Both the position numbers and the translations under genes were made by a program. A stretch of 61,627 bases of DNA from a virus (lineage: Duplodnaviria; Caudoviricetes). Shown here in pieces: positions 6,001-60,709 of the stretch (position 1 is its first letter; the number at the start of each line of letters is the position of its first letter). The stretch is from positions 1 through 61,627 of the IMG/VR virus record IMGVR_UViG_3300023109_000023. The stretch is one strand, 5' to 3'. Below the pieces are notes generated by a model. That model saw only the letters and a list, made by a program, of their open reading frames with translations. It had not been told where the DNA came from and searched no databases.

Positions 6001-9000
6001 GTTGAAGGTGGCACACCAGCAGCTTTCTCTCTTTTAATGGCTTGAATTAATGGGTCACTGAAATTGGGAACAATTCCTTTATTTGCTACATCATAATACT
6101 TATCTTCATCTCCCTTGAAATAACCTCTTAGTGAATTTTTATCAGTAACTCCTTCTGGCACCCCCTTTCTTTGGAAATTTTTTGCCTGAAGTAAAGATTC
6201 TGTATGTTTCTGCAAGAAAGACTTCATTAATTTACTTGGCTGCTCGATTCCATCTTTCTTCATGTTACGAATAACACTTGGGTTATCCATTACAGATTTA
6301 ATGTGCCTTATGTCTTCTGTGTTAGCCGATATAGAGAATGTTTCCTTATCAAGCCTGAGACCAGAAACTGGAAACTCCATTTGCATCCACTCTACAATAT
6401 CCTCAAATTGTTTGTACTCATCAGGGGTGACTCTTAAATAGTTTTTAGTATCTTCCTTTAAGCCTTTCCTAGCTTTTTCAACCCTATTACTAGCAACAAA
6501 GTTAGGGACGAGACCCTTGCTTGAGAACCCCGCCGCAGAATCACCCTTTCCTTTAACTCTCTTAGTTATTAAATCCTGAAAATTTACAGCTTCATCCATG
6601 TCGAATGGACCGCCAAATGGCTTATAAACTAAACTTGCAAGATCTGCATTTTCTGGCTTAGTGAAGTGTTTGTTAATATCACTTTTAAAACCCACAAGAC
6701 TATCAAAATCCATTACCTGCTCATCATACCCTTCTGAATAACCAAAGAGGCCTCCAGTTTGTAAGCCTTCTTGTATTCTATATTTGATTTGAGGAAACAT
6801 TGAAACAATATTAGCCCAGGGTGTTGACCCCATCCCATTTCTCTGTGGAGTTAAATACCCAGACCCCACGGATTCATTATTTTTTAATAATTTATTAAAG
6901 TTATTAAATGCACCTCCTTTTAGATCCTTATCCCCCCTAGTTGCATGTAATACTTCTGCATGTCCCGCAGGGTATTGCCTATACTTCAAGCTGGTTCCCG
7001 TTTCGGGGTCTTCCATTTCTCGAACAGACATGGCAAAGTTTGGCACAAGCCCTTTGTTTAAAACCTGCATGACCTCGCTTTCGCCTGGTAAAACTTGACG
7101 AGTGCCATTAGGGTTATAACCAATATCTGATTCTGGAACCATTTGTCTCATGGTCTTGTCGTAGAAATCATATTCTTTTCTACCATATTCCATTTTATAA
7201 TGGTCCAATAAAGACCTATCATTTCGTCTGCCGTAAACATTCAGATATAGCCCGCCATTTTCTTCAGCCCACTTTTGTATGGCTCCGTTCGCCATAGATT
7301 CTTTAAATTCGTCAACCTTAGGGTAGAGTCCTTGCTCTGGGTCAGATCCCATGCTCAGTACTCTCAACATTTTCTTTTTATCGAATACATTTTTTTCTGG
7401 GACGGTTTTCTCGAGTACATGACCTTCTTCTACTGGCTTGCCTGGTCGGATTGATCCCGCAAAATTCTTAGCAACAGTTTTTGAGGTACTAAAGGATGTC
7501 GCTCCAGAAGGTTTTTGGTTCCCAACATCTCCAACATCCCTATAACCAGCCATGGGTCCACTTGTATGAGATTTAACGAAAGCTTGTACGATGTCTACTA
7601 CAGCTTCTGGAGTATTGGCCCCTTCAAATGATGGCATATTTTTACCAATTGTAGGTTCATCAATCCCTTGTCTTGATTTATTTTGACCTCGATATAGAGT
7701 TAAGTTTGCGAAGTTAGGAACTAAGCCTTTTGAGAAATCATCTTCTCTTACTGTTTTCCCTGGTTTAGGTTGGTAAAAATTTCCAACTTTTTCTAAAGCC
7801 ATGGTTACTTCGTTATATAAGATTTCTTGACCTTGAATTTTTCCATGCCCACTAGTGTAAGAAGTTACATATCCTTCGTGGTCATCTGCTTGGGCATCTT
7901 GTATTGCGGCTATATATTTTGATGTATAGTTTTCTACCTCTTTAGAGTCCATTCCAACTTTACCTCCTTCAACTTTATTCGCATAAACCTTTCTAATAGC
8001 AGCCTTAATTTGAGACTCTGAGACATACCCATTTTTTAAATTTAGGGCATTAAAATTCGGCACTAACCCCTGGGCTGCATTCACATAATCTCTGTAAACA
8101 CTTGCTCTAACCCAGTCAGGATCCATTTTAACCCCTACTGCTTTCTTGCCTTGACTTGTGATTTCTTCGACGTCTGGGTCTGTGTTTAATCCATAATTAA
8201 TTTTATTGCCGACCATCTCGTAGCCATCCAACCCCTTACCATTAATAAACTCGGCAGCATAAGAAGGGAGAGCTACATCTAATATAGACGACCCACCAGC
8301 CCTATCCATCGTAAAGTCTAACCCAGATTTTACCATGGGGGTATTATTGGCTTTGGCTAGCATTTTTGTAGCCGTATGAGAAAGCCCAGACTTAGCCGCC
8401 TCTCCGTGTGTCACTTTTTCGATAACATGCGGATTAATTCCTGTGCTGGGGTCATATCGACCAGGACCAATATTTACATCTCCTTCTGTATTTTTCTCCC
8501 AATCAAATCTTGTGGTTGGCCCACCAGGGTCTCCCATGTAAGCCCTGTCACCAAAACTTGATTGAAAGTTTACACCCATTGTTGCTGATGTTGCAGGGAA
8601 TCCACCTCTTAATACTGTTAATGGGTCTAGTAAATCTGACATCGGCAAAGACTGACTTTTCACTGTTTTTGTGGTGGGGTCAAGTAACTCTCCATTAACT
8701 GCCCCAGCCGAAGAAACTATTTGCCCCTTATGAGGTTTAAATATTTTTCCAGAGGGTAAAGTGTATTCATTCCTTGCATTGATCGTCTTGCCATCCATAT
8801 TGAAGATATCTTGCTGAGACGCATAGTTGGGTACAAAACCAGAACTTATCCCATGCGACACAACTAAATCTTTAGACGATTGGTCTATTAATTCTGGGTT
8901 TTCTCTTAAAGTTTTTTGTAATTCGTTTTTTTGTAAAAGACTTTTAACTTGAGCCATTGACATACCAACGGGATTCCAAGACCCCATTCTCGCTAATTGA

Positions 9001-41668: not shown

Positions 41669-42724
41669 TTATATTGCATCCTTTTTTGAGATTCCTAATA
41701 TTCTAGCCTTCCAACTTTCCATGTCGTCAAGCCGTTCGACTTCTTCCTCGACTAGAGCTTTTTGCATGTCAGCTAATTGAACCATTTGCTTCCTCTGCTC
41801 CTCTAGTTGGAAATTCTTAACGAGCGATAATATACTGGCATGATCGTCACGCCGATTCTTTAGTCGCTCTGCACGGTCACCATTTAATTTCTTAATAAGT
41901 GATTCCATGCGTTTCTCACATTTATCATATTCATCAGTTTTAGATTTTAATACTTCTGCTAGTCTAACAGTCATATCTTGCTGATCCTCAACCTCATTGA
42001 ACATATTATTTAACTTTTCTGTATGAGAAGATATATTTTTTAAATTAATGTAATCTACACAGACATTAATATATAGATTTATTTCGTCTGCTGTAAGATC
42101 TGGTTTGTCCCATGTAGCCCTTATGAATTCAGCCTCAAATAATTTTCTATCTTTATCACTACTGTAGTTACTTATTACTAGGATGAATCTAGGGGAAGAA
42201 AGGTTTCTAACAAGGTTCTTGGCACATTCTATATCGTCATGTGTCATCTTATCTTCAACGAACTCTGTGTGAGCAAATTCGTTAATTTTACTTATAGCCG
42301 TTTTTGTTATTTTAGGCGGGTGGTATTGCCTGTTAATAGCTGTTTCGCTTTCATGGACAAAATTAGGCTCATATTCTCTTAAAAACTCTAATACGCAGAC
42401 ATGGTGCTTGGAGAATCTTTTAACGGTGACATCTGGGAACAGTATTTCTGAAATTTGAAATGCACTCAACCCATTCTCAGCCTGAGCCTTAATAAAATCT
42501 ACTTGAGCTTCGGTTAAATCTATATCTTCCATTTTCTCCCAAGCACTGGTTTCATATTCCAAGTTTTGACTTGCTAGAAATTTCCTAACCGCCCTGCCTT
42601 CTTTTGTGCGACCATCTAGGTCGGGATCACCAAATAGTCTTCTAGTTAAATCGATAAGACTTGGATTTTTCTTAAACTCTTCGGTTAAGAACTTTTGTTG
42701 TTCGTCAGTTAAGTCCATCGACAT
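41669..42724 (-). CDS. Hypothetical protein, candidate terminase small subunit
   Basis: Two LTxEQxxF HTH-like starts plus a coiled coil; upstream of TerL. Confidence 0.4.
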   Translation of the reverse strand: MSMDLTDEQQKFLTEEFKKNPSLIDLTRRLFGDPDLDGRTKEGRAVRKFLASQNLEYETSAWEKMEDIDLTEAQVDFIKAQAENGLSAFQISEILFPDVTVKRFSKHHVCVLEFLREYEPNFVHESETAINRQYHPPKITKTAISKINEFAHTEFVEDKMTHDDIECAKNLVRNLSSPRFILVISNYSSDKDRKLFEAEFIRATWDKPDLTADEINLYINVCVDYINLKNISSHTEKLNNMFNEVEDQQDMTVRLAEVLKSKTDEYDKCEKRMESLIKKLNGDRAERLKNRRDDHASILSLVKNFQLEEQRKQMVQLADMQKALVEEEVERLDDMESWKARILGISKKDAI

Positions 42725-43448
42725 CGTCCTCCCCTTTCAGAAATGTGATACCCTTGTCTTGCAGTATTTTTACCGCTTTTTCTTTTAGTAAATTTTTAAG
42801 GTTTTTTATTTGCTTGTAGCCAGCCTTCCTTCCAGACTCACTACTTTTAAAGCCCATCTCTTTGGCTGCTTCTTCGTCTGTTAATTTTTGTACATATAGT
42901 AATTGAAATGCCTGCCACTGTCTTTTATTTAAAGCACCCTTTAATTCATGTATTAATTTACCAATAGATTTATCTATATTATGGTCATCATACTCTTCAT
43001 GATTATTTATTTCGTGATAATGATTTTCTATAGATAATGTAATCTTTACATTGTAAGCTTGTCTTTTTGTTTTTTCCCACTTAGCATATAAAGGACAGCC
43101 CCCATCTTGCTTGCCGCTAACAGTAAACTTACATTCGTTTTCTATAGAATCATTAGAGAACGGACAGTTTAAACAAGGTCTAGCATAATTACTATAATTA
43201 TTTCTTAATATATTTTTAAATTGATTACTTATTATTTTATTAAGCCAAGGCTTTATTGGTCTATCTTGATCCCATTGAGTCCATTTCTTATGTATGTGTG
43301 CACGGATAATTTGGCAGACGTCATCAAAGTCAAGCCAAGATACAGATGTTAAGAACCAGTTGTTGCGCCTTTTATTTAATTCAGCGTCAATTAGTTCTGA
43401 GAAATCTTCGTATTTGTATTCTGGGTCAGGGTCTTTCTTTGTCCTCAT
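42705..43448 (-). CDS. Phage-encoded sigma70-family (ECF-like) sigma factor with a Cys-rich insertion
   Basis: Region 2 DFDDVCQ...KWTQWD...KPWLNKIISNQFKNILR; CLNC...C...C insert; region 4 LNKRQWQAFQLLYVQKLTDEEAAKEMG. Confidence 0.75.
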   Translation of the reverse strand: MRTKKDPDPEYKYEDFSELIDAELNKRRNNWFLTSVSWLDFDDVCQIIRAHIHKKWTQWDQDRPIKPWLNKIISNQFKNILRNNYSNYARPCLNCPFSNDSIENECKFTVSGKQDGGCPLYAKWEKTKRQAYNVKITLSIENHYHEINNHEEYDDHNIDKSIGKLIHELKGALNKRQWQAFQLLYVQKLTDEEAAKEMGFKSSESGRKAGYKQIKNLKNLLKEKAVKILQDKGITFLKGEDDVDGLN

Positions 43449-49536: not shown

Positions 49537-50538
49537 CTATTTAGTTTTTTTCTTCTTATATCCAGATTCTGCTGGAGTAAGAGTATAACCCATTTTTTTG
49601 TATTTCAAGTGTTCCTCTTGGCTTTTAGCTTTGTAGGCTTTTCCAGTTTTGGGATCATACATGTCATGAGGCTTGAAAGCTTTAGATTTTTCGTCCATCT
49701 CGTCATGGTCGCCACAATCACTTGCTTTACCCTTTTTTTCTAAAATCTTTTTTTGTATAGCGGGAGGTAAACTTTTTTGCTCTTTTGTTAGGCTATCTTT
49801 TTTTTCGTCGCTCTTTTTGTCTTCAGCTTTAGATTTTTTATCATCACTGGATTTTTGAGCTTTCTTTAAAGCCTTAGGGTCTGGGTAATCTTTGTCGCCT
49901 GGTTTTGCAGGTTTGTAGTTTTTACCTTCACGTTTCTTTTTGTCACGGATATTCTCCCATAAGCCTTTTTTAGCATCAGACTCTTTTTCTTCTTTTTTGG
50001 AATCTTTAGAATCTTTTGAGTCCTTAGAATCCTTTGAATCTTTTTTGTCTTTTGAACCACCCTTTTTGCTTTTTTCAATTTTTTCTTGAATAGCTGGAGG
50101 TAATTTTTTTTGCTTTTCTGAAAGTTCTGCAGCGGTCTCATCTAAAAAGTCCGCCATCTCATCTTCTAATTCAGCTTCTCCTTTAGTCACACTTTTTACA
50201 CTTTTCTTACTCCACATCTTGCAACTCCAGTATTTAGCCTTAGTCTTAGGCCCAGGATTATCGCAACCATGACGAGCACGAAAACTTCGGCGGCGTGCAG
50301 GATCATCACGTTTGATTTCCATGTTGGGGTCACCAAAGTTTACTTTTACTACATTACCCTTCTCGTTTTTCACATATACTGAAAACTTCTTTGGCCCACC
50401 TGAAGTCCTGAAAGGTTTGTTTAGTTTTTTTCCTTTTTTTTCTTCTTTTGCCCAGGATTCTTCGTTAATTTCTTCTTCATTACCCTCGCTTGCGAGCAAT
50501 TGAAGTCTAATTTGTTCTGTGAAATCTAGTTCTTCCAT
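49537..50538 (-). CDS. Lys/Glu-rich modular protein, candidate internal head/DNA-binding protein
   Basis: KLNKPFR..GGPKKFSVYVKN.KGNVVKVNFGDPNM...RARHGC...YWSC module; KDS tandem repeats; duplicated LSEKQKKLPPAIQ/LTKEQKSLPPAIQ. Confidence 0.6.
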   Translation of the reverse strand: MEELDFTEQIRLQLLASEGNEEEINEESWAKEEKKGKKLNKPFRTSGGPKKFSVYVKNEKGNVVKVNFGDPNMEIKRDDPARRRSFRARHGCDNPGPKTKAKYWSCKMWSKKSVKSVTKGEAELEDEMADFLDETAAELSEKQKKLPPAIQEKIEKSKKGGSKDKKDSKDSKDSKDSKDSKKEEKESDAKKGLWENIRDKKKREGKNYKPAKPGDKDYPDPKALKKAQKSSDDKKSKAEDKKSDEKKDSLTKEQKSLPPAIQKKILEKKGKASDCGDHDEMDEKSKAFKPHDMYDPKTGKAYKAKSQEEHLKYKKMGYTLTPAESGYKKKKTK

Positions 50539-50819: not shown

Positions 50820-51038
50820 ATGACAGTTAAAGATATTAAATTCGAAATTCAATCACTAAAGAGCCGACTTGATGCGCACCATGTTGACCAAGAAACCCGT
50901 CGTTGGGTTCGTGCAGAAGGCAAAGACAAAGACTCGATCTTGTCAAGCATTGACGAACTAACAAAGATGTTACCACGTGCGAGCCATGATGACGACGTGC
51001 GCCGTCACGGTTGGAAAAGTGTTGAAAGAAATGCCTAA
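50820..51038 (+). CDS. Hypothetical early protein
   Basis: 72 aa; own promoter. Confidence 0.7.
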   Translation: MTVKDIKFEIQSLKSRLDAHHVDQETRRWVRAEGKDKDSILSSIDELTKMLPRASHDDDVRRHGWKSVERNA

Positions 51039-51079
51039 AAGCTTGACTTGGTCACCTTAAAACGTTAAATTACTTATAT

Positions 51080-51271
51080 ATGAAAATAAAAAACGGATCT
51101 ATCTACCACAGTAAATCAAATAACAAAGCCGTTCGTGTAGTGCGAGCAAATCAAGAGCAATCAATTGCTTATGTAAAACACCACAAACAAACCCAAATCG
51201 AAACAGAGGTTTTTTTCTCTGATTTGATGCCTGCTACTCCTATGCAAGTCAAACTTTACTTAACTAGATAG
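51080..51271 (+). CDS. Hypothetical early protein (SH3-like size and pattern)
   Basis: 63 aa; own promoter. Confidence 0.7.
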   Translation: MKIKNGSIYHSKSNNKAVRVVRANQEQSIAYVKHHKQTQIETEVFFSDLMPATPMQVKLYLTR

Positions 51272-51340
51272 TCATGTTAATAGCAGAATTTATCTTGGGC
51301 ATAGTGGTAACATTAATTTTAATATCAAAAGGATAACAAA

Positions 51341-51649
51341 ATGAGAAAAGTAACAGAACAAATAAAACAAGCCTTTAATAAAGGCGTATCTTTAAAAGTC
51401 GGCAACACCAAGACAGACGGTCAGACCGTTTGGCTACATGGTAACGCCATTGTTAAGCGTGATCCTGACGGCTTGGTCAGGTGGTCGCTTGCAGGATGGA
51501 ATACCCCCACCACACGCGAACGCGTTAACGGTATAGCCAACGCGGGGGTTTGTCAATTCAAATTCGAGCCTGTCTTAAATGGTCAAGAGATTGACTCATC
51601 CGATTGGTTTGCCTCTAATACTGCATTGCCCGATCCTCTCATTTTCTAA
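51341..51649 (+). CDS. Hypothetical phage protein
   Basis: 102 aa; LHGNAI...AGWNTPTTRERVN. Confidence 0.7.
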   Translation: MRKVTEQIKQAFNKGVSLKVGNTKTDGQTVWLHGNAIVKRDPDGLVRWSLAGWNTPTTRERVNGIANAGVCQFKFEPVLNGQEIDSSDWFASNTALPDPLIF

Positions 51650-51804
51650 CAAAAGCCTTACGTAAGTCCTTGACTATCAGGGACTTACGCGCGGCGGCCC
51701 GCCGTAAATCGTTGGTATTCAACGACTTACGAAGGTAATAAAATAATTGCTAAATAATTGCTAAAAAGTTTGACTTCAGCTAATTTATGCCCTATATTGT
51801 ATAT

Positions 51805-52083
51805 ATGATTAAGACAATAAATAAAACATTTGTAGCAAGCGTTCACGTCTCTTCCCTTGATGGCGAGGCAATTTCTTTGTGGAATAGTAATACCAAGTCG
51901 TACATTGACATTGACAAGACACATCACGCAATCACTATACAAGCTGAAGACAAGCACGAAGTCAGACGCAAAGTCGCTCGCATGATTCGCACGCTTCAAC
52001 CAAAGTTACAATTTCAAACAAGCATTCCACGTAAGGATGGCGATAATGCCACCTACTACATCCAACAAATTCACCAAAAATAA
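51805..52083 (+). CDS. Hypothetical early protein
   Basis: Start moved to MIKTINK, 6 nt after the -10 box. Confidence 0.65.
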   Translation: MIKTINKTFVASVHVSSLDGEAISLWNSNTKSYIDIDKTHHAITIQAEDKHEVRRKVARMIRTLQPKLQFQTSIPRKDGDNATYYIQQIHQK

Positions 52084-52122
52084 CCTTGACATAATAGCTC
52101 AAACTCTCTAATTTAGATACAT

Positions 52123-52344
52123 ATGACAAACACAATAGAACAAATAAAACGCGAATTAAACTTGGATCTCGACCTTGGCTTGGCACTAGCTGAAGCCGAA
52201 GGCAACTTGAACCACTTAGCCCGTGAGTCAAATTCATCCGATTGGCAAGGCACAATCACGCAAGGCATGACAATTCTCGAAGCCCTGAACGCAGTGCAAA
52301 AAGCAAGAAAAGCCTTCCAAGAAATCAAGCGAAATAAAGCTTGA
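52123..52344 (+). CDS. Hypothetical early protein
   Basis: 73 aa helical; own promoter. Confidence 0.65.
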   Translation: MTNTIEQIKRELNLDLDLGLALAEAEGNLNHLARESNSSDWQGTITQGMTILEALNAVQKARKAFQEIKRNKA

Positions 52345-52533
52345 CACACTAAAATCCCCTAAGTGCTTGACTATCAAGCACTTACGCGGGGCCGCCCGAC
52401 GTAAGTCGTTGAATACCAACTACTTAGGTAAACTTGCCTATGGCGCAGCCCTCGGCCCGCGTCGATCTTATTTGGCTAAAAATAAATCATAATTAAGTTT
52501 GACATGGGCAGCCCCATATGCGATAGTAGTAAT

Positions 52534-52869
52534 ATGAACATAACAAATATAACATTCTCGAAAATCGATCACAAGCTAATCACAGCACATCTATCCTTTG
52601 ATAGTGCTAACCATGAGCACGGCACTATACGCGCAGAAGGCGTATCTCGTAAGCAGTGCATATTCAATTTATGCAAAGAAGGCAAGTTGCCTTGGAAGTT
52701 GTTCGGTGTAGCTCGCGCATTGGCAATGCAACACAACGACCCTAGGTTTCCCAGGGTTAGCCATAGTAGAGAAGACGACAGACTCGCAGATATCTGTGAC
52801 GATCTGAATTGCTCGATTAGTGAAGCTCGCCACTTTCAGGAGACAGGCGAACACCCCGCAAATTGGTAA
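52534..52869 (+). CDS. Hypothetical early protein
   Basis: Start moved to MNITNIT after the promoter; single gene between repeats 2 and 3. Confidence 0.65.
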   Translation: MNITNITFSKIDHKLITAHLSFDSANHEHGTIRAEGVSRKQCIFNLCKEGKLPWKLFGVARALAMQHNDPRFPRVSHSREDDRLADICDDLNCSISEARHFQETGEHPANW

Positions 52870-53062
52870 GACTTCTCCTAAGTACTTGACTATCAGGTAC
52901 TTATGCGAGGCGGCCCGACGTAAGTCGTTGAATACCAACTACTTAGGTAAACTTGCCTATAGCGCAGCGCGCGGCCCGCGTTAATCTTATTTGGCTAAAA
53001 ATAAATCACGATTTATTGCTTTATTGCTTGCTATGCACTACCATATGCCTTATGTTGTTTAT

Positions 53063-53305
53063 ATGAACAATAATTACGATGATTCACTCGACCGACTTGC
53101 TCACCTCACAGGTATGACTGACCTAGAATATGAAGCCCAGCAAAAGGCTCTCGCTCAGATTGCCCGTTTTGACAGGCTCATCGCTGACGTTAGAAACAGC
53201 GATGAACCTGCGCCGATGACCGAGGTGCACCATAACCATGAAGAGCCCAGCATAGACGCCTATGATGACTATGACTATGGCTACCATGACCAATACGAGC
53301 AATAA
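53063..53305 (+). CDS. Hypothetical acidic early protein
   Basis: Start moved to MNNNYDD; single gene between repeats 3 and 4. Confidence 0.65.
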   Translation: MNNNYDDSLDRLAHLTGMTDLEYEAQQKALAQIARFDRLIADVRNSDEPAPMTEVHHNHEEPSIDAYDDYDYGYHDQYEQ

Positions 53306-53516
53306 GCTCGTAAGTCGTTGATTATCAGGTACTTACGCGGGGCCGCCCGCCGTAAGTCGTTGAATACCAACCACTTAGGTAAACTTGCCTATGGCGCAGC
53401 CCTCGGCCCGCGTCAACCTTATTTAACCGAAAATAAAACACAATTAAGTTTGACATTCGCCCTCAGATATACGATAGTAAGGTATGACAGAACAACAACC
53501 CAACTAATATCAACAT

Positions 53517-53702
53517 ATGATCTCAATCAAAAAAAATCAAAACTTCTCTAATTGGTTCCAAGTATTCGCTTTCGGTAAAATGATAGATGAATTCAGTCGC
53601 AAAAGTAAGGCAATACGTCGTGCTGAAGAATTAGCAGTACAATCAAACCAAAAATACATCAACGTCGAAGGACTAGCACAGAAAATCGGATATGGCAACT
53701 AA
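53517..53702 (+). CDS. Hypothetical protein
   Basis: 61 aa. Confidence 0.6.
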   Translation: MISIKKNQNFSNWFQVFAFGKMIDEFSRKSKAIRRAEELAVQSNQKYINVEGLAQKIGYGN

Positions 53703-53901
53703 AAAACTCGTACTCACTACAATATCGCAAGGCAAAATTGCCGTTGTAGAAAGCGCCGAAAAGGCAAATGACAAGAGGGGGGAAAGATACATAAGCGAAG
53801 ATTGCTTGGCTGTCAATCTTAAAAGTGGTGCATTTACTGACATTACTGCGACAGGCGCCAACCCCGAAGGTAGACTATATATGTTTACGGAAGATATGTA
53901 A
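53692..53901 (+). CDS. Hypothetical protein
   Basis: 69 aa; its stop codon is the TAA of repeat 5. Confidence 0.6.
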   Translation: MATKKLVLTTISQGKIAVVESAEKANDKRGERYISEDCLAVNLKSGAFTDITATGANPEGRLYMFTEDM

Positions 53902-53970
53902 GTCGTTGATTATCAAGCACTTGCGCGGGGCGGCCCGCCATAAGTCGTTGACTATAAGCGGTTTATGTAA

Positions 53971-54195
53971 TTAAAACTCTTCCATGAGCAACTCATCAAG
54001 AGCATAGATATCAAGGTCGGGATCGTTATAGCTTGCCCCGTCAGGAGTCCTGAATAAGCCCAATGCCTCAAATTTCTCCACAAGATCAGTATATCCCGCG
54101 CATCTGCGAGCCATCTTATAAATCGATTCGTCATTACCTAACCAAAGCGCAACATTCCAAGTTGCCCAATTCTTCCATCCTTTGTAGTTTTCCAT
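53971..54195 (-). CDS. Small phage protein of the GWxNxxTWNVxLW type
   Basis: YKGWKNWATWNVALWLGNDE. Confidence 0.7.
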   Translation of the reverse strand: MENYKGWKNWATWNVALWLGNDESIYKMARRCAGYTDLVEKFEALGLFRTPDGASYNDPDLDIYALDELLMEEF

Positions 54196-54199
54196 AGTC

Positions 54200-54391
54200 T
54201 TATCCTTCTATTAATTGTTTGAATTGATCGTAAACTTTTTGCTTGCTACCTTTTAGCTCAAACTCTTCCTTGACGATAGAGTAGCAACTTCTACCCCTTG
54301 ACATCTTCAAGCCGTTAAGCTCAAGTCTTAGCCCCCGAAGTAATGTTTTATATCTGAATGCTTCAATTTGTGTTGGTTCTGTTAATATCAT
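54200..54391 (-). CDS. Hypothetical phage protein
   Basis: 63 aa; LRLELNGLKMSRGRS...LKGSKQKV. Confidence 0.65.
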   Translation of the reverse strand: MILTEPTQIEAFRYKTLLRGLRLELNGLKMSRGRSCYSIVKEEFELKGSKQKVYDQFKQLIEG

Positions 54392-54405
54392 ATCTTTAAT
54401 ATAGT

Positions 54406-54603
54406 TTAGTTGTTATTGTTTGTAAAGTCTTCTTTTTCTAATTGTACTCTGATGTATAGGTCGCCATTCTCGTCTTCGTCCATGTCGGCATAATTGCAAT
54501 CTTTAAAATCGCCCATGTCAGCGATACCATCGTCATTTGCAAAAGTATTAATCTTGAATGAACAAATGTCATTTCCTCTGTAGTCTTCAATTTGTATTTT
54601 CAT
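54406..54603 (-). CDS. Hypothetical acidic protein
   Basis: 65 aa. Confidence 0.6.
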   Translation of the reverse strand: MKIQIEDYRGNDICSFKINTFANDDGIADMGDFKDCNYADMDEDENGDLYIRVQLEKEDFTNNNN

Positions 54604-54614
54604 ATTCTTATGTG

Positions 54615-54860
54615 TTAAACGATTTCTTCAACCATTTTCATTAATTGTTTTACTTCGTCTAAATTTTGTTGAAGTAAATTGAGTTGTGCAAGTATGCCTT
54701 TATAACCAACATACCCACCATTCATGTGACCCTGCCAAGTGTTGCCTACTTTCTTAAATGAAACATCCCAACCACAATGATAATCATATGCTTTTAGGAT
54801 GCCGTTTGGCAAGAGTTCAAATGTTAGTTCTTTTCCGTTTGTTTTGTCTTTTAATGTCAT
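54615..54860 (-). CDS. Hypothetical protein
   Basis: Start moved to MTLKDK, 6 nt after the -10 box. Confidence 0.65.
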   Translation of the reverse strand: MTLKDKTNGKELTFELLPNGILKAYDYHCGWDVSFKKVGNTWQGHMNGGYVGYKGILAQLNLLQQNLDEVKQLMKMVEEIV

Positions 54861-54891
54861 AAGTATAAAGTAGTTTAATTTTTGCTCTGTG

Positions 54892-55074
54892 TCAAACAGA
54901 AACACGAATGAATTCTGTAGTGCTGTTACCCACATCAGCGCGGATAAAATGAATTAAATCCTCCTCCAATGCTCGCTCGACTGTGCCAAGATGATCCTTA
55001 AGTTTGCTACTGTAGAGCCAAATCTCTCCGTCCTGCGTTGAATTGATAAGTTCGATTAGTTCTTTTATTGTCAT
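54892..55074 (-). CDS. Hypothetical protein
   Basis: 60 aa; own promoter. Confidence 0.6.
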   Translation of the reverse strand: MTIKELIELINSTQDGEIWLYSSKLKDHLGTVERALEEDLIHFIRADVGNSTTEFIRVSV

Positions 55075-55192
55075 ACCAATACACTAAGGCATCTAACTAA
55101 CTATAGCAAGAAAAAACTTCAATTAAATGCATTTTGTCGTAAGTCGTTGATTATCAAGCACTTGCGCGGGGCGGCCCGCCGTAAGTCGTTGA

Positions 55193-55321
55193 TTACCAAC
55201 CACTTAGGAGAACTTCCTTCAACTCCGTGACTGACCACCCAGAAAGCTTGGAAAGCTCCCTGAGGGTCAATGAGATATTTACATCATATTCATTTACGAC
55301 TTTTTCTTTTGTCCACTTCAT
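55193..55321 (-). CDS. Small HTH-like peptide (42 aa; not in ORF track)
   Basis: MKWTKEKVVNEYDVNISLTLRELSKLSGWSVTELKEVLLSGW; ends inside repeat 6. Confidence 0.45.
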   Translation of the reverse strand: MKWTKEKVVNEYDVNISLTLRELSKLSGWSVTELKEVLLSGW

Positions 55322-55388
55322 GTCGGTATAATTAAAATTATTATGCAAGGTAGTAAAATCGTCAATCCTATTAATAAAAATATTTCAA

Positions 55389-56126
55389 TCATGAATTTAC
55401 CCCTTCTACTACAAATCCTGTTGCGTCTTTCTTTGCCATGCCTTTTTCGATTAAGCCAACGACAACACCTTTCTTGTCAAGAAAACGCAAATCAGTTTCA
55501 TCACCATTGACGACCTCAAAACCTTTCCATGTCTTGGGTAATTGATTGCGAAATACAACGGCTACATTACCACCCATTAAAAGAACCATTTCGCATTTCT
55601 TGTCGTTATTCTCTGAACGACTAAAAGTCAAATGATAATTGGAAGGAAATTTTGCCTCGCCCTTGACAAAAGGTTTGCCGAGAAAAGAGCACATTCTCTT
55701 GAATGATTTTGTATAATCATAAAATTGAGTTGATGAATGCTTTTCGAGAATAGTTGCACCATCTTCGTTGATCTCATTTTCCCACATGATGTCGCTTGTA
55801 AGATTAGGACGAAATACAGCTTGCATACTTTTCTTTTGCGCTGACTTAATTGAAGAAGTAATCTCTTTAGATAATTTCTGAAAAAATTCGAGTTTGTTCT
55901 CGAAGAACAACTTTGTCTTGTTCACTCGCGAATCTTGGACAGATCCCATTTGACCACGACCTGCCGTATTGAGACAAGATGCCGTGCAACCCTTTGAGCG
56001 CCATTGGCAAGTTTCGTATCCTGATAAATTTGCTGGGGCAAGGTGAATGCCTTTAGTTATGTAACCTAATTTCTCGCCTTTGAGAATTTTTTGATTACCT
56101 GATGTGAGAAGTGTTGTTTTAATCAT
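55389..56126 (-). CDS. Cys-cluster phage protein (gp88-like, radical-SAM-like)
   Basis: CQWRSKGCTASCL, FRPNLTSDI, QFYDYTK, NYHLTFSRSE, VNGDETDLRFLD; start moved to MIKTTLL. Confidence 0.65.
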   Translation of the reverse strand: MIKTTLLTSGNQKILKGEKLGYITKGIHLAPANLSGYETCQWRSKGCTASCLNTAGRGQMGSVQDSRVNKTKLFFENKLEFFQKLSKEITSSIKSAQKKSMQAVFRPNLTSDIMWENEINEDGATILEKHSSTQFYDYTKSFKRMCSFLGKPFVKGEAKFPSNYHLTFSRSENNDKKCEMVLLMGGNVAVVFRNQLPKTWKGFEVVNGDETDLRFLDKKGVVVGLIEKGMAKKDATGFVVEGVNS

Positions 56127-56310
56127 AAGTACATAGTAGGGCACTTTTCCAAATACAGCAAGAAAAAAGATCAATTAAATGAAAATAGTTGTAAGTCCTT
56201 GCGTATCAAGCACTTACGCGGGGCGGCCCGCCGTAAGTCGTTGAATATCAACGGTTTAAAAAAGTTAAACTTCTTCTTGACTATCGGCCCTGGTGGAGGT
56301 AGGGTAAGGT

Positions 56311-56523
56311 ATGAAAAATACAATAACACCATACGAAGTGGGCCGACTACTCAGCGAAGCCCAGGAAAGAATCAACGATTCGCTCTCATGCGCAGACGAA
56401 CTAACTCCCGCAGACTATGAAGAAATCACCAGGTGGAGAGATGATGTCGAGAAGATTTTCGCTATACTGGTGGATGAGATGTCATGGGTGGCTGACGGCA
56501 AGCATATGCTAACGAACCACTAA
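56311..56523 (+). CDS. Hypothetical protein
   Basis: 70 aa; single gene between repeats 7 and 8 with own promoter. Confidence 0.65.
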   Translation: MKNTITPYEVGRLLSEAQERINDSLSCADELTPADYEEITRWRDDVEKIFAILVDEMSWVADGKHMLTNH

Positions 56524-56638
56524 TGCCGTAAGTCCTTGCGTATCAAGCACTTACGCGAGGCGGCCCGCCGTAAGTCGTTGAGTATCAACGATTTACGAGG
56601 TTTCTTACCTAGGGCCCGCCCGCAGGGCGAAAGCTTAT

Positions 56639-56755
56639 TTACTTAAATTCTATTTCCTCTCTGCCGTCAAACAGAGAAGTAAACATGAGAAAGAAAGCAA
56701 AGAAGGTCGGCATTAGAAAAAACAAACAAACGAAAAATTCTAATATACTATCCAT
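56639..56755 (-). CDS. Small membrane peptide (38 aa; not in ORF track)
   Basis: MDSILEFFVCLFFLMPTFFAFFLMFTSLFDGREEIEFK; start overlaps the upstream gene end. Confidence 0.5.
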   Translation of the reverse strand: MDSILEFFVCLFFLMPTFFAFFLMFTSLFDGREEIEFK

Positions 56756-57023
56756 TGTAAACCCCCTTCATTTGATCGGATATACCCAAGTCTACGAAGT
56801 TGTCCTCTTCTTCGATGTCCTCGGCATTTGGTGAATGATGAAGCAATGAAGACTCATCTTCAATGTCTGACTTTTGCGCATCTAGTAAACCATGCTCACC
56901 CAAAACCTCTTGAGACTTAATCTCTGATACAAAATCTTCGAGAGAAGTTTTAAGACCAAGACCTTTGGAGTCTTGGACGGCGTGTTTAATGATGGCGATT
57001 CTTTGATCTTGTGTTAGTGTCAT
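56748..57023 (-). CDS. Hypothetical acidic protein
   Basis: 91 aa. Confidence 0.6.
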   Translation of the reverse strand: MTLTQDQRIAIIKHAVQDSKGLGLKTSLEDFVSEIKSQEVLGEHGLLDAQKSDIEDESSLLHHSPNAEDIEEEDNFVDLGISDQMKGVYNG

Positions 57024-57050
57024 AATAATAAGGTAATGTAGTTTTTGGTT

Positions 57051-57410
57051 TTATGCAAACTTTTTTTCTCTTTTTTCTTCGCACATTGCAATGAGTAAAT
57101 TCTCGTGAGCTTTTCCGTCAAGTTGAAATTGTCTCATGAGTTTAGAAATGTCAATAGGTTTTTGCCATCCTAGCACATCATCATATAAAGCAAGAGGAAC
57201 TTTCTTCCTGTCTCCGTCCTCATCAAATTGAGTGCCAAAAACTGCAACTTCAAAAGTTTCATTCTGATAAGTACCATAAGGCAAAGACCAATCATCTTCT
57301 ATGTCGCCCGCAATAACAGAAAATAAATATCCGTTGTCAAGCTCAAGTGATGCAGTCCATCTTTGAATATCTTTGTGGTGTGTGAATTTTAAATCATTAA
57401 ATGTTTTCAT
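57051..57410 (-). CDS. Hypothetical phage protein
   Basis: 119 aa; FNDLKF...DNGY.FSVI...YG...FEVAV. Confidence 0.7.
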   Translation of the reverse strand: MKTFNDLKFTHHKDIQRWTASLELDNGYLFSVIAGDIEDDWSLPYGTYQNETFEVAVFGTQFDEDGDRKKVPLALYDDVLGWQKPIDISKLMRQFQLDGKAHENLLIAMCEEKREKKFA

Positions 57411-57446
57411 ATAATAAAATATATACTGTTAGTTATTGTCTGTCAA

Positions 57447-57653
57447 CTAAAACTTTAATGCCTGAATAGAAGTATTCTCTCTGCACCATTTTCTCAAAGG
57501 ATGATGAGCTTTCGCACTCAAGTGAGTCAAATACTGTTTCCCATTAGTTGCCATAAGCATGAAGCCTTTAGCTGTTGCACGGATGTCTTTGATCTCAGGA
57601 CATTTACGCAGTTGTTTTAGTATCTTTAAGTTTCCACTATCTCTATGTTTCAT
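57447..57653 (-). CDS. Small basic protein (weak HicA-like pattern)
   Basis: 68 aa; own promoter. Confidence 0.6.
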   Translation of the reverse strand: MKHRDSGNLKILKQLRKCPEIKDIRATAKGFMLMATNGKQYLTHLSAKAHHPLRKWCRENTSIQALKF

Positions 57654-57828
57654 ACTAATAATATAAGCTTGTTAGGTGGTGGTTGTCAAATATAATTTAC
57701 TTAATGATGTAAGTCGTTGACCATCAAGCACTTACGCGGGGCGGCCTTCCGTAAGTCGTTGAATATCAATGCTTTAAAGAAGTGAAACTTTTTCTTGACT
57801 TTTGCTCGGTGCAGGCGTACATTTAGGT

Positions 57829-58158
57829 ATGGAATTAATAATAAACGATATAGACCCTAGCGAAGATACATTTCTCGCATCAATCTCAAACGACGACTGC
57901 CAGGAAATGATCCTGACCTGCTCCTTCTACACAGACGAGCAGGAAGAATTGTACGGGGATCAAGTTTCCGCAATTCATGTGGTCGCCTACTTCGATTCTG
58001 TTCAGGAAATTACAGCTTTCGGGGATGATGGATTACCGATGACCCCACCTGTTGAGCTAGTAAAATCAGCCATGGATCAGCTCAAAGATCTTGAGCTAAC
58101 AATTGAATCTAGAGAATGTGATGTTGATTTTTCCCCTCGATACTACGATCTAATTTAA
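57829..58158 (+). CDS. Hypothetical acidic protein
   Basis: Start moved to MELIIND; single gene between repeats 9 and 10. Confidence 0.65.
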   Translation: MELIINDIDPSEDTFLASISNDDCQEMILTCSFYTDEQEELYGDQVSAIHVVAYFDSVQEITAFGDDGLPMTPPVELVKSAMDQLKDLELTIESRECDVDFSPRYYDLI

Positions 58159-58282
58159 TCTCATAAGTCGTTGATTATCAGGCACTTATGCGGGGCCGCC
58201 CGCTGTAAGTCGTTGAATACCAACGATTTAAAAAATGAAGGTTTCCCTTGACTTTCTGAGCGTTTGGAGGTAATTTATTTGT

Positions 58283-58525
58283 ATGAATACAATAAACAAT
58301 ATACAACAAATGACCGCCCAGGAACAATCAGATTATATTATGGGCATAGTGATGAACGCCGTACCAAGCATTGATGACCACGTCGGTGACATTATAGGAA
58401 TTATTGACGATTTGGTCTGTGAGGATAATTGCACAGACAGCGGGTATGATTTCCAGGCTGGAGTCAGAGACATGAGGTTTGAGAACGACGATTTCATTCT
58501 CGAAGTCGAACTACCAGTAAATTAG
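58283..58525 (+). CDS. Hypothetical acidic protein
   Basis: 80 aa; single gene between repeats 10 and 11. Confidence 0.65.
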   Translation: MNTINNIQQMTAQEQSDYIMGIVMNAVPSIDDHVGDIIGIIDDLVCEDNCTDSGYDFQAGVRDMRFENDDFILEVELPVN

Positions 58526-58620
58526 TAAAATCCCCTAAGTACTTGATTATCAGGTACTTATGCGGGGCGGCCCGCCGTAAGTCGTTGACTACCAAGGACT
58601 TATGAGATAAACCTTCCCAC

Positions 58621-58650
58621 AAAAAAGCCCCTCCGTTTGGAGGGGCTTTC
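58621..58650. terminator. Rho-independent terminator after the DUF932-like gene (possibly bidirectional)
   Basis: AAAAAAGCCCCTCC-GTTT-GGAGGGGCTTT. Confidence 0.85.
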
Positions 58651-58670
58651 TATATTTGTCAAGCCTTTAT

Positions 58671-59534
58671 TTAAGCTTCTACCAATTCACCTTCAACTAC
58701 TTCCATGTCAAGAACTTGCTCGACATGGTTTTTAATGTCGAAGCTGACCTCACCATCAAGAACGGAATGCAAGGCATCCGAGCGATTAGGTAAGGCAACT
58801 AAGTTTCCCTTGTATACCTCGGTGAAAGCATTGTAAAGAGAATTTACATTGCGATCCCAAAATTCGGGATGATCGGAGGATTCCCATTGATTGACAACAT
58901 CCATGATTTTAGACTTTGGCAAAGCACCTGCCTTGCAAGCTCTAATGACAAGATCATTAGCATGGGAACTTGAAAGATCGAAATCCTTGTAGGCATTGAT
59001 GCGATTGTCTTGACCATTCCAAAAGCCAAATAATTTACCCAATGCACGATTGATAGTAAAATCAAGATCTTGCAAAATGTTACGAGTATGGCGACGCGCT
59101 AATTTAATAGTATTGGTAAAAATAAGATTGTCGCAAACAAAGGGGGCATCACCTGCGCACAATCCCGCAGGAAATGTTTTGTCGTGAGAGTTGCGAAGAC
59201 CAACTACACAACCACGATCAGATGCCTTACGATTAGGGTGATCGACTGAGAATAAACCAAAATAGTGGTTATCGTTGCGAGCAAGAGAGTGAACCTCATC
59301 TTGAATGGTGAAACCATTGGTTTCTAAAAAACCTTTGGTGCGATGAACCAACGCGTCGTGAGCGATTGGCTGATAAGAGACGGCTCTCTCACCATTGGCA
59401 TTTTCTTTCTTGCGATACTCTACAGGAGGAGTAGGAACTCCGACTACTTGATCGAAATCTACGAGAGTACGATTGCCTCCGCAGATGTGAAGGTTTACTT
59501 TGGGTGAGTTGTTTGTATTTTCTGTTGTATTCAT
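58671..59534 (-). CDS. DUF932-family protein
   Basis: YQPIAH, VGLRNSHDKT, FVCDNL, RRHT, SLYNAFTE. Confidence 0.8.
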   Translation of the reverse strand: MNTTENTNNSPKVNLHICGGNRTLVDFDQVVGVPTPPVEYRKKENANGERAVSYQPIAHDALVHRTKGFLETNGFTIQDEVHSLARNDNHYFGLFSVDHPNRKASDRGCVVGLRNSHDKTFPAGLCAGDAPFVCDNLIFTNTIKLARRHTRNILQDLDFTINRALGKLFGFWNGQDNRINAYKDFDLSSSHANDLVIRACKAGALPKSKIMDVVNQWESSDHPEFWDRNVNSLYNAFTEVYKGNLVALPNRSDALHSVLDGEVSFDIKNHVEQVLDMEVVEGELVEA

Positions 59535-59572
59535 GATAGTAATAATATAGATGTGATTGTTTTTGTCAATAG

Positions 59573-59818
59573 TTAATTGCGAGAAAAGTAGTCTTTATCG
59601 TCAAATTTCCCTTGTTGGGTTTTTTCGTAGGCACTTGCCTTTTCAGCGATTGATCTCAAGACTAAGCCAATGACTGTAACCATGTCAATTTGATCGGAGT
59701 CATTTTTATCAATATTGGGCATAATGAATTCATCCCAAATATATTCCATTGCATTATTCATGGCTGATTCTGAGTCTAAGATTTTATCTTCTGAGTTGTC
59801 TGAATTAGGAATAAACAT
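59573..59818 (-). CDS. Hypothetical protein
   Basis: 81 aa; GGAGG upstream. Confidence 0.6.
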   Translation of the reverse strand: MFIPNSDNSEDKILDSESAMNNAMEYIWDEFIMPNIDKNDSDQIDMVTVIGLVLRSIAEKASAYEKTQQGKFDDKDYFSRN

Positions 59819-59930
59819 TTAATGCCTCCTTGTATTTTTGTTTGCGGTGTAAAGTCTTACTCTTGACTTTGTGAGGGCGACTCTTGGTAAAGACAATCGC
59901 TTTTCTTATCTTGATTTCTCTTGCTTTCAT
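59805..59930 (-). CDS. Small very basic protein (41 aa)
   Basis: MKAREIKIRK...HRKQKYK; start 6 nt after the -10 box. Confidence 0.6.
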   Translation of the reverse strand: MKAREIKIRKAIVFTKSRPHKVKSKTLHRKQKYKEALNVYS

Positions 59931-60073
59931 ATAAGTATAGTAAGCTATATAAGTAATTATAGCAAGAAAAAAGTTAAGTAAATTTGCGTTTTGTTGTAAG
60001 TCGTTGAATATCAACGGGTTGTGCGGGGCGGGCTGACCTAACCCCTTGATAACCAAGGAGTTAGGCCTTTTAC

Positions 60074-60244
60074 CTAAACTGTAATGTGGCGAGTTCTTTT
60101 CTCGGCTCTATAGAGCTGATATAGTAAATCGTGGTGGGACCTTTTTAAGTTGAAGTAATCAGGGGTGTTTTCCCCATATATTTCTCTGACGGCCAATTGG
60201 TACCCAAGTTTACGAATGTTTTCTCTGAGAGTTTTAATTTTCAT
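60074..60244 (-). CDS. Hypothetical protein (56 aa; not in ORF track)
   Basis: MKIKTLRENIRKLGYQLAVREIYG...; fills the gap between the upstream gene and repeat 12. Confidence 0.5.
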   Translation of the reverse strand: MKIKTLRENIRKLGYQLAVREIYGENTPDYFNLKRSHHDLLYQLYRAEKRTRHITV

Positions 60245-60249
60245 TTTTT

Positions 60250-60483
60250 TTATACTTTGTTAAGTGAGACGATGCGATCATAACGAAAGGAGCGAACGGC
60301 ACCCCTGTTGAAACAGTAGCTTCTAAAGCCTGCAACAGCGAGACCTTCTTTGGCATTACCGAATTCGTTTTCGTGTTTCGGTTTCGTGATGGTGTACATC
60401 TGCGTTTTACCGTCTTTAGTATTGTAAACAACACTGTATACGGGGCGTAATAATTTAAGCAACTTCAATAACATTTTCTTCAT
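60250..60483 (-). CDS. Small SH3/WYL-like protein
   Basis: C-terminal GAVRSFRYDRIVSL. Confidence 0.55.
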   Translation of the reverse strand: MKKMLLKLLKLLRPVYSVVYNTKDGKTQMYTITKPKHENEFGNAKEGLAVAGFRSYCFNRGAVRSFRYDRIVSLNKV

Positions 60484-60709
60484 GTTGATCCTTTCTTATG
60501 GGGTTTAAGTTGTAGTGATTGTAAGCATCAGTCACTTCCTGTGCTGATTCGAAACTTACAGAAATTAAATCTCTCTCTTGGCTTGGATGCCATGGTGTCT
60601 CTGATTCCTCAAAGAATAGTAACCAAAGTTCTGATTCCTCGTCCCATTCGGGCAAACCCAAAGGCTTCCCGATACAAGTTGCTTCTATGTAATTGTTCAT
60701 GATTATCAT
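60455..60709 (-). CDS. Hypothetical acidic protein
   Basis: About 81-84 aa; start 60709 or 60700. Confidence 0.6.
   Translation of the reverse strand: MIIMNNYIEATCIGKPLGLPEWDEESELWLLFFEESETPWHPSQERDLISVSFESAQEVTDAYNHYNLNPIRKDQHEENVIEVA

Follow-up and report, generated by a model that had tools for sequence, protein, structure and literature searches.

The question raised by the IMG/VR virus record IMGVR_UViG_3300023109_000023 is what purpose is served by twelve nearly identical, doubly palindromic units that stand between the small genes of an uncultured marine phage. The whole record of 61,627 bp (referred to as the window; CheckV completeness 42%) was analysed, and the units, each 67 bp long, were located at positions 51663-60063, where they separate small gene units. 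This array is treated here as an early-expressed region, a timing that is assumed from its small open reading frames (ORFs) and sigma-70-like promoters. The units were read neither as terminators nor as promoters. From their sequence and placement they may rather be double-stranded, protein-binding boundary elements, likely read by a host protein of the IHF/HU kind, and they would double as patches of homology between cassettes; a probability of about 0.5 is given to this reading.

A repeat search of the window returned one repeat family with 12 copies, all within 51651-60065 and with a start-to-start spacing of 337-1461 bp. Each unit begins with (C/T)(G/C)TAAGT and consists of a 25-bp palindrome P1 (typically TAAGTnnTTGAnTATCAAnnACTTA), a 17-nt spacer of nearly pure G+C (typically CGCGGGGCGGCCCGCCG) and a second 25-bp palindrome P2 (typically TAAGTCGTTGAATACCAACGACTTA). 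The centres of P1 and P2 are 42 bp apart, which is about four helical turns, and each palindrome is made of two inverted TAAGTnnTTGA half-sites flanking an nTA centre. With a 25-bp pattern and up to 3 mismatches, 23 palindrome matches were obtained in the window, every one of them within the 12 units, against a mean of 0.77 and a maximum of 4 in 100 shuffles; the remaining one of the 24, P2 of unit 5, departs too far from the pattern to be matched. The layout given in an initial annotation of this DNA, namely twelve copies of a palindrome, a 17-bp GC spacer and a further palindrome, was thereby confirmed by both repeat and pattern search.

The same annotation had claimed that the spacer always points the same way. 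An nhmmer profile of the 12 copies scored each of them at 56-79 bits on the plus strand and at 26-40 bits on the minus strand, so the shared orientation of the window units is regarded as real. It rests on a modest asymmetry of the spacer and of the best-conserved half-site directly 3' of it, the unit being nearly a palindrome of palindromes. By the same scores, all nine units of the closest relative, G002 (a complete record of 200,094 bp with a 161-bp end overlap), share one orientation within 179.7-189.0 kb. Units of mixed orientation were found in several other relatives (e.g. L023, L033, L038 and L047); uniform orientation is thus a feature of the window lineage and not of the element.

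For an analysis of what is conserved, 118 full copies of 68-69 nt were taken from the window and its relatives; as these copies share ancestry both inside one genome and from genome to genome, the counts are not independent. Positions 2, 3 and 9 of the half-site are invariant in all 118 copies, and the two central positions of P1 are Watson-Crick paired in only 38/118 and 48/118. The central dinucleotides of the paired arms agreed in fractions of 0.19 and 0.29, compared with 0.18 and 0.27 after shuffling, and in an alternative long hairpin their agreement was below chance. Among the 81 distinct 69-mers, 79.3% of cells were paired versus 78.6% in shuffles, a value reached by 17 of 500 shuffles and so within reach of related but unconstrained sequences. 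The central two pairs were unpaired in 48/81 and 50/81 copies, and the single long hairpin scored under the shuffle mean.

These figures bear on a role at the RNA level, in which the units would be hairpins of 3' untranslated regions that end transcription, act as barriers to exonucleases or serve as RNase III targets, in the manner of PeSL stem-loops, T7 RNase III sites or repetitive extragenic palindromes (REPs). Such a role would agree with the strong single-strand folds predicted on both strands (-26 to -34 kcal/mol, z -2.9 to -6.1), through which any transcript crossing a unit would carry a stable structure, with the position of most units directly after a stop codon, with a weak covariation (score 0.136 vs 0.124; 6/500 shuffles reach the observed value) and with the one palindrome of 24 that scores terminator-like (P2 of unit 8). 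It is at odds with central stem positions that are unpaired in about 60% of copies, with pairing that hardly departs from that of shuffles, and with a long hairpin scoring below them. The placement of the copies also speaks against it. When 116 distinct copies were classed by junction, 25 were co-directional in the sense of the element, 49 co-directional in the opposite sense, 22 convergent, 13 divergent and 7 unclassed; the divergent ones include window units 7 and 9, and no transcript is expected to cross them. The surplus of G.T over A.C mismatches in P1 goes with the way the element points in every junction class, whichever way the genes are transcribed. The palindromes are not followed by a T-run, and terminator-like hairpins with T-runs were found as separate sites after units 2, 3 and 11. 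An RNA-level role is considered improbable enough to be given little weight. From the conservation of sequence without pairing, the copies at divergent junctions and the separate terminator-like sites, it is concluded that selection acts mainly on double-stranded sequence, as it would on a protein-binding site.

The placement of the units was mapped onto gene calls that are simple ORF picks. The intervals between units hold 1-5 small ORFs, in each case on a single strand, with the strands running +,+,+,+,-,-,+,-,+,+,-, and all five strand switches in the window coincide with a unit, exactly as had been annotated. The ORFs that had been described as ending in or next to a repeat do so, at 53901 inside unit 5, at 55193 inside unit 6 and at 56523, 4 nt before unit 8. 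Positions, strands and surroundings of the units and of the cassettes named below are as follows.

51663..51729, plus strand: unit 1, with P1 at 51663-51687 and P2 at 51705-51729; junction +/+.
52360..52426, plus strand: unit 2, junction +/+, followed by a 176-nt module (family D4) common to units 2-4; this downstream module holds a terminator-like GC hairpin with T-run at 52452-52465 and a TTGACA promoter-like site at 52499-52527.
52879..52945, plus strand: unit 3, junction +/+, with a downstream module of the unit-2 type and a terminator-like site at 52966-52982.
53311..53377, plus strand: unit 4, junction +/+, with a downstream module of the unit-2 type and a promoter-like site at 53450-53478.
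53899..53965, plus strand: unit 5, convergent junction (+/-), with the stop codon of ORF 53692-53901 within P1 and a degenerate P2.
55140..55206, plus strand: unit 6, junction -/-, with a leftward promoter module at 55060-55126 (family D6), 30 nt from P1.
56192..56258, plus strand: unit 7, divergent junction (-/+), with a leftward promoter module at 56112-56178 on one side and a rightward TTGACT-N17-TAGGGT promoter-like site on the other; probably untranscribed because of this position between divergent promoter-like sites.
56529..56595, plus strand: unit 8, convergent junction (+/-), its P2 being the only palindrome scored terminator-like.
57710..57776, plus strand: unit 9, divergent junction, with promoter-like sites at 57689-57660 (minus strand) and 57795-57823 (plus strand).
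58164..58230, plus strand: unit 10, junction +/+.
58536..58602, plus strand: unit 11, convergent junction, followed by a separate hairpin at 58624-58649 that resembles a two-way intrinsic terminator.
59997..60063, plus strand: unit 12, junction -/-, the most diverged copy, with a leftward promoter module at 59916-59982 on its left.
55389..56126, minus strand: GP88 cassette gene (Pfam) between units 6 and 7.
56259..56528, plus strand: one cassette with ORF 56311-56523, missing from G002.
57777..58535, plus strand: two cassettes and unit 10, with ORFs 57829-58158 and 58283-58525, missing from G002.

Near-consensus TTGACA/TTGACT-N16-18-TAnnnT sites were found at the heads of cassettes, and to this extent the earlier statement that each interval has its own promoter was supported; in the window overall, sigma-70-type promoters were not significantly enriched (38 found, 29.7 ± 5.3 expected). 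No -35/-10 pair lies inside the 67-bp unit. The promoter-like sites stand 18-19, 30-31 or about 85 nt outside it, in larger modules of sub-families, and the distance from unit to promoter is constant within a module type (18-19 or 30-31 nt, counted by eye). Sigma-54 promoters beside the units were rejected, as the 28 matches compare with 25.8 expected and none adjoins a unit. It was further observed that the -10 box (TAnnnT) often stands 5-7 nt before an ATG without a Shine-Dalgarno sequence (ORFs 54892-55074, 56748-57023, 57051-57410, 57447-57653 and 58671-59534, all on the minus strand, and others), and a loose 4-nt motif resembling a Shine-Dalgarno sequence precedes only 11 of 27 large ORFs. 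The short distance from box to ATG and the missing Shine-Dalgarno sequence suggest that many first genes of cassettes may be expressed from leaderless early mRNAs.

The units might also be operators for a dimeric or tetrameric regulator encoded by the phage, which would shut off or time the early cassettes, with pairs on the same helix face allowing cooperative binding and looping. The conservation pattern is that of a half-site, the 42-bp phasing fits, and the distances between unit and promoter are fixed within module types. Moreover, the half-site TCAAnnACTTA occurs 14 times in G002, each time inside the array of about 9 kb. The promoter distance nevertheless varies from about 18 to about 85 nt between module types, and convergent junctions offer no promoter to control. 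Pfam gave no recognisable DNA-binding domain in the array ORFs, and a private phage regulator would leave unexplained why the palindrome stands in many viral contigs and in up to thousands of bacterial copies. Dispersed operator sets such as the C1 operators of P1, the stoperators of mycobacteriophage L5 and the KorB sites of RK2 are private to the element and its own repressor. The array resembles them in having about a dozen copies of one site between the transcription units of a mobile genome; it differs in a palindrome common to many phages and bacteria, and no cognate phage regulator was seen. Operators of this kind are held to be unlikely, with some points in their favour.

Related marine phages of about 200 kb were found to bear arrays of the same kind. 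Arrays were sought in relatives by means of the flanking gene at 49537-50538, and the profile detected them in 17 of the 80 loci reached in this way. Single-strand ORF sets between units recur in the array-bearing relatives, and the paired GC-clamp architecture at the borders of transcription units is kept in relatives with a flanking protein about 50-70% identical. A repeat search of six loci at greater distance, in the region upstream of the flanking gene, detected no arrays; diverged or half-site forms occur elsewhere in those genomes. The distant relatives G003 and G006 retain one arm only, (T/A)ATCAAnGACTTA. In the 203-kb G003 this single arm is joined to an AT-rich stretch (TTTCGCAATTATATGGTATTCAACGACTTAC), as seen in locus L109 (G003:138000-153999) at 4351-4477, 8000-8070, 10733-10803 and 11661-11794. 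On the opposite strand of G003, a perfect TATAAT stands six bases past the half-site, and all four exact half-sites lie on one strand. A triple form, in which three palindromes alternate with two GC spacers, was noted at L047 5501-5609, where the profile reads two overlapping units of opposite orientation.

The palindrome is not confined to this phage group. In virus sequences it was found in at least 157 stretches; among 172 viral palindromes listed, 88 belong to pairs that stand 41-42 or 47-50 bp apart with an intervening spacer of 75% G+C or more, 13 are paired across another spacer and 71 are single within 60-nt flanks. The exact pattern, which specifies 18 bases, was present in at least 125 stretches of the bacterial genome collection, where about 9 matches were expected from collection size (an estimate). 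Among 80 bacterial matches listed, 42 belong to Bacteroidota and 18 to WOR-3 or Hydrothermia. Three small contigs, binned as Rhodobacteraceae, unclassified bacterium and Oscillospiraceae, bear the paired form with GC spacer and resemble phage fragments. The viral and bacterial counts together indicate that the paired form with its GC clamp is widespread as a part of phage genomes, and that the word from which it is built is in use in some bacterial genomes as well. Limited searching of the literature by motif string and by topic yielded no description of the palindrome.

Copies with up to 2 mismatches numbered 2080 in a metagenome-assembled genome (MAG) of Microscillaceae, 310 in one of Saprospiraceae and 317 in one of WOR-3, compared with 9 in Verrucomicrobiae and 2 in Hymenobacter; the pattern read backwards, used as control, gave 0-1 copies in those genomes. 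In 131 kb of the Microscillaceae MAG, 52 of 58 sites lie outside ORFs of at least 80 aa. These sites are single and without GC clamp, and their junctions (17 co-directional, 10 divergent, 8 convergent) are near the background of 42:20:16. Two features of bacterial copies were noted in passing. In the WOR-3 MAG with 317 copies (G011, 1.8 Mb; contigs L112, L114, L126-L128, L142 and others) the palindrome is part of a longer repeat, which also has G-runs at its flanks and another conserved inverted repeat (ctttgtc...), and several sites share a contig at distances of a few hundred bases. Elsewhere a single palindrome adjoins the apparent 3' end of a tRNA gene, sometimes extended by inverted repeats, as judged by eye (L117, L124, L138, L139, L157, L176, L191, L192, L203 and L229).

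A palindrome of such uneven abundance could be a selfish or neutral repeat of the REP kind or of the kind of miniature inverted-repeat transposable elements, kept by recombination copying and without any role in the control of phage genes. The extreme copy number in a few lineages, with near-background numbers (2-9) in others, agrees with this, as do Y1 transposase (Y1_Tnp) genes in two of the three high-copy genomes (G008 and G009). None of seven Y1 genes, however, is bracketed by palindromes as in REP families driven by RAYT transposases, the nearest site being one-sided and 184-263 nt or more away; with no Y1 gene found in the phages (the window and four relatives), a RAYT-driven REP family was rejected. 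The paired GC-clamp form and its strict placement at borders, persisting in relatives with flanking proteins of only about 50-70% identity, are likewise not expected of a neutral repeat, and this explanation is regarded as rather improbable.

Of the known bacterial repeats, BIME-1 (RIP-RIB) of E. coli, in which pairs of GC-rich REPs flank an IHF site, comes to mind. In common with the BIME-1/REP group, the present element has extragenic palindromic pairs with a linker between transcription units, an IHF-type site, a high copy number in some genomes and a proposed architectural role. The layout is reversed, with AT-rich IHF-like palindromes flanking a GC-rich linker, and the context is that of a phage. 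The palindrome resembles a REP in being a high-copy, extragenic, imperfect palindrome, by the copy numbers and the sampled sites given above. The REP is reportedly marked, by the title of one study, by a GTAG or CGTC tag at one end of the element; no such tag was seen at the ends of the unit copies of window and relatives, and no RAYT association was found.

A candidate for the protein that reads the units is suggested by their arms. The loop is nTA in 84/118 P1 copies and 67/118 P2 copies, and the sequence of the right arm together with this loop, TATCAAnnnnTTA, agrees with the consensus of IHF sites in E. coli, WATCAANNNNTTR, the nTA loop giving the W and the A. This consensus occurs as a term in the IHF literature. 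The window holds 24 exact matches to WATCAANNNNTTR, of which 16 lie in the 12 units, 1 elsewhere in the array region and 7 outside; 16 of the 48 half-sites thus match it exactly, most others being one mismatch away. The arm and loop resembling IHF sites, and a palindrome common to many phages and bacterial chromosomes, make a host nucleoid protein, and not a phage recombinase, the most likely reader.

According to the proposed mechanism, an abundant DNA-bending or nucleoid-associated host protein of the IHF/HU kind would bind both palindromes on one face of the helix, and the GC clamp would hold the two sites 42 bp apart with the DNA between them stiff and unmelted. The bound complexes would then bend or insulate the DNA between independently promoted cassettes, and perhaps tune neighbouring promoters; the units stand at the borders of such transcription units at all four junction types. 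Through the units as homology patches, general recombination of phage or host would gain, lose and swap cassettes. The initial annotation had offered tandem operators for a dimeric protein, or organisation signals, as an alternative to recombination sites. This part of it comes closest to the evidence. A phage-encoded HU/IHF protein in the manner of TF1 of SPO1 was rejected, as no PF00216 match was obtained in the window, G001 or G002.

The role as homology patches, which the near-identity of the 67-bp direct repeats suggests, was followed by comparison with relatives. At one unit of G002, the sequence that flanks window unit 7 on the left meets the sequence that flanks unit 8 on the right, which means that one cassette and one unit are additional in the window. 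The flanks of window units 9 and 11 likewise meet at one other unit of G002, so that the window has two extra cassettes and units 10 and 11. A third event is a replacement. The GP88-family gene at 55389..56126 is 87% identical to a gene of a further relative, G001. Its positional counterpart in G002, also of the GP88 family, shows no significant similarity to it (E 0.45), yet in the flanking gene the identity is 94% with G002 and 48% with G001. Comparison of gene order between repeats, as the annotation had proposed, thus gave two clean indels and one allele replacement bounded by units. Over 13 pairwise comparisons, 35-60% of the homology-block ends in the arrays of informative pairs fell no more than 25 bp from a unit, where 10-18% were expected, at p < 0.05 in 8/13 comparisons and not in 5/13, a test that may be inflated by paralogous repeat modules.

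Whether a dedicated site-specific recombination system, of the integron or invertase type, inserts, excises or flips the cassettes was considered on the same data. Indels and a replacement that break in units would be expected of it, and palindromic arms could in principle pair either way. Six-frame searches for tyrosine recombinase (PF00589), serine recombinase (PF00239) and Y1 transposase (PF01797) were without match in the window and four relatives (three of them complete), with control genomes giving matches, and Pfam found no recombinase among the G002 ORFs; the statement that no recombinase is visible in the window therefore stands and extends to these relatives. The cassettes carry their own promoters, many breakpoints lie elsewhere, and relatives contain flipped units. 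Inversion of cassettes without flipping of the spacer, as once suggested, was not borne out, since the gene pair 53517-53901 is on the opposite strand in G001 and split over two cassettes there, which is no simple flip. A dedicated system is very improbable. The suggestion that the half-sites serve as recombination sites for cassettes survives in so far as relatives differ by whole cassettes at units and block ends are enriched there. Homologous recombination between 67-bp repeats would be enough, given a RecA-like gene in G002 and no site-specific recombinase found, and ordinary homologous recombination, as at the PeSLs of T4, is the likely route of shuffling.

Comparison with known cassette systems leads to the same view. 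Integron attC sites also bound cassettes, with some ORFs ending within a few bases of the repeat; here, no integrase was found, the cassettes have their own promoters on both strands, and sequence is conserved rather than a folded single-strand structure. The PeSLs of T4-type phages combine a strong promoter with a terminator stem-loop (Arbiol et al., 2010, PMC2839356). Like the PeSLs, the present units are short, conserved repeats that stand between the small and mostly unknown genes of a hyperplastic region; in both cases the cassettes have sigma-70-like promoters of their own, and insertions, deletions and replacements among close relatives are accounted for by recombination between repeats. 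The PeSL is reported to contain promoter and terminator, whereas promoters and terminator-like sites stand beside the 67-bp unit and not in it. The unit further differs in its two palindromes around a GC clamp, each resembling a protein site, in its presence at divergent and convergent junctions, and in a palindrome common to bacterial genomes. The phage itself is not T4-like, as judged from its lambda-type tail genes, giant tape-measure protein and DnaE. The annotation was right that the architecture differs from both integron attC and T4 hyperplastic modules. The element is best described as bounding shuffling early cassettes by repeats, PeSL-like in genome evolution and not integron-like. 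A further paper on the PeSLs of T4-type phages is said to be that of Comeau et al. from 2014.

Several observations weigh against units that are bound by a host IHF/HU-kind protein and serve as homology patches. Only about a third of the half-sites match the IHF consensus exactly, the AC that is conserved ahead of TTA has no counterpart in it, and the mirrored consensus halves would seem too close together for one IHF dimer. An HU/IHF-family gene (PF00216) was not found in the window, G001 or G002. The palindrome is present in only 2-4 copies in five further genomes, two of them single-cell genomes of marine Bacteroidetes; high copy number is thus a property of certain lineages and might be due to the spread of a selfish repeat instead of a universal protein site. 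The promoters at cassette heads resemble the sigma-70 type TTGACA-N17-TATAAT and not the -33/-7 type of Bacteroidota, and so would fit a Bacteroidota host badly. The strong single-strand folds and the weak covariation belong here as well, and so does the possible inflation of the block-end test. Finally, many breakpoints between relatives lie at gene borders rather than at units, e.g. two genes inserted in G002 past the promoter module of unit 4 and one gene inserted beyond unit 12.

A broader proposal is advanced tentatively and is held to be doubtful. The palindrome might be a phylum-spanning word, mainly of Bacteroidota/FCB, that is read by a conserved nucleoid protein and has been co-opted in GC-clamped pairs by many unrelated phages, both as a border part that would fold or insulate the first-expressed cassettes and as a crossover point between co-infecting phages. 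If true, it would add an undescribed class of phage genome-organising element and an undescribed bacterial repeat family, present in thousands of copies in some Bacteroidota-type genomes and with a testable binding protein. Recruitment of a host nucleoid protein at each border of the first-expressed genes, if it takes place, would be a general means of arranging and insulating takeover genes that is so far undescribed in phages, and would explain gene exchange in hyperplastic regions outside the T4 group. In uncultured phages, early regions could be recognised computationally by the paired form, and possibly the host lineage as well.

The phage that carries the array has no close cultured relative, a megablast of the array against the phage collection being without match. 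Its terminase is at most 28% identical to any record of that collection, and PHROGs put names on few large proteins. The ORF 3-11750 (minus strand, at least 3916 aa) runs off the start of the window and has a PhageMin_Tail domain near its N-terminus; its product is a giant tape-measure-type protein, and the tail is by implication very long. Since this giant ORF is of the tape-measure type and not an RNA polymerase, hairpin promoters for a virion RNA polymerase like that of N4 were rejected. Over 47.5 kb of structural genes, G002 and the window share 91.8% identity, with the array rearranged. By Pfam, G002 encodes lambda-type tail genes, DnaE, DnaB, primase, ribonucleotide reductase, ThyX and C5 methylase, and, related to recombination, the RecA-like protein, a PD-(D/E)XK nuclease and a RuvB-like ATPase. 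Nearly all of its genes are on one strand, the array being among few two-stranded regions. A replication origin at the array was rejected, since the cumulative GC skew of G002 falls monotonically with this one-stranded layout and shows no turning point there.

Pfam also gave two sigma-70 region-2-like proteins in G002. Weak Sigma70 region-2 matches were noted at 42705-43448 (minus strand) of the window and at L100:9499-9996 (minus strand) of G002, and such small proteins may be phage sigma factors. Within the array-flanking ORF 49537-50538 (minus strand), tandem 9-nt repeats (GAATCTTTA-like) at 50000-50053 give the protein a repetitive charged stretch. At least 93% of the sampled words of 51000-60500 were contained in each of 19 DNA runs of seawater or marine metagenomes (2016-2024), and 26% in one metatranscriptome run, to which no weight is given; by the DNA runs the exact arrangement of the array seems widespread and stable in the sea.

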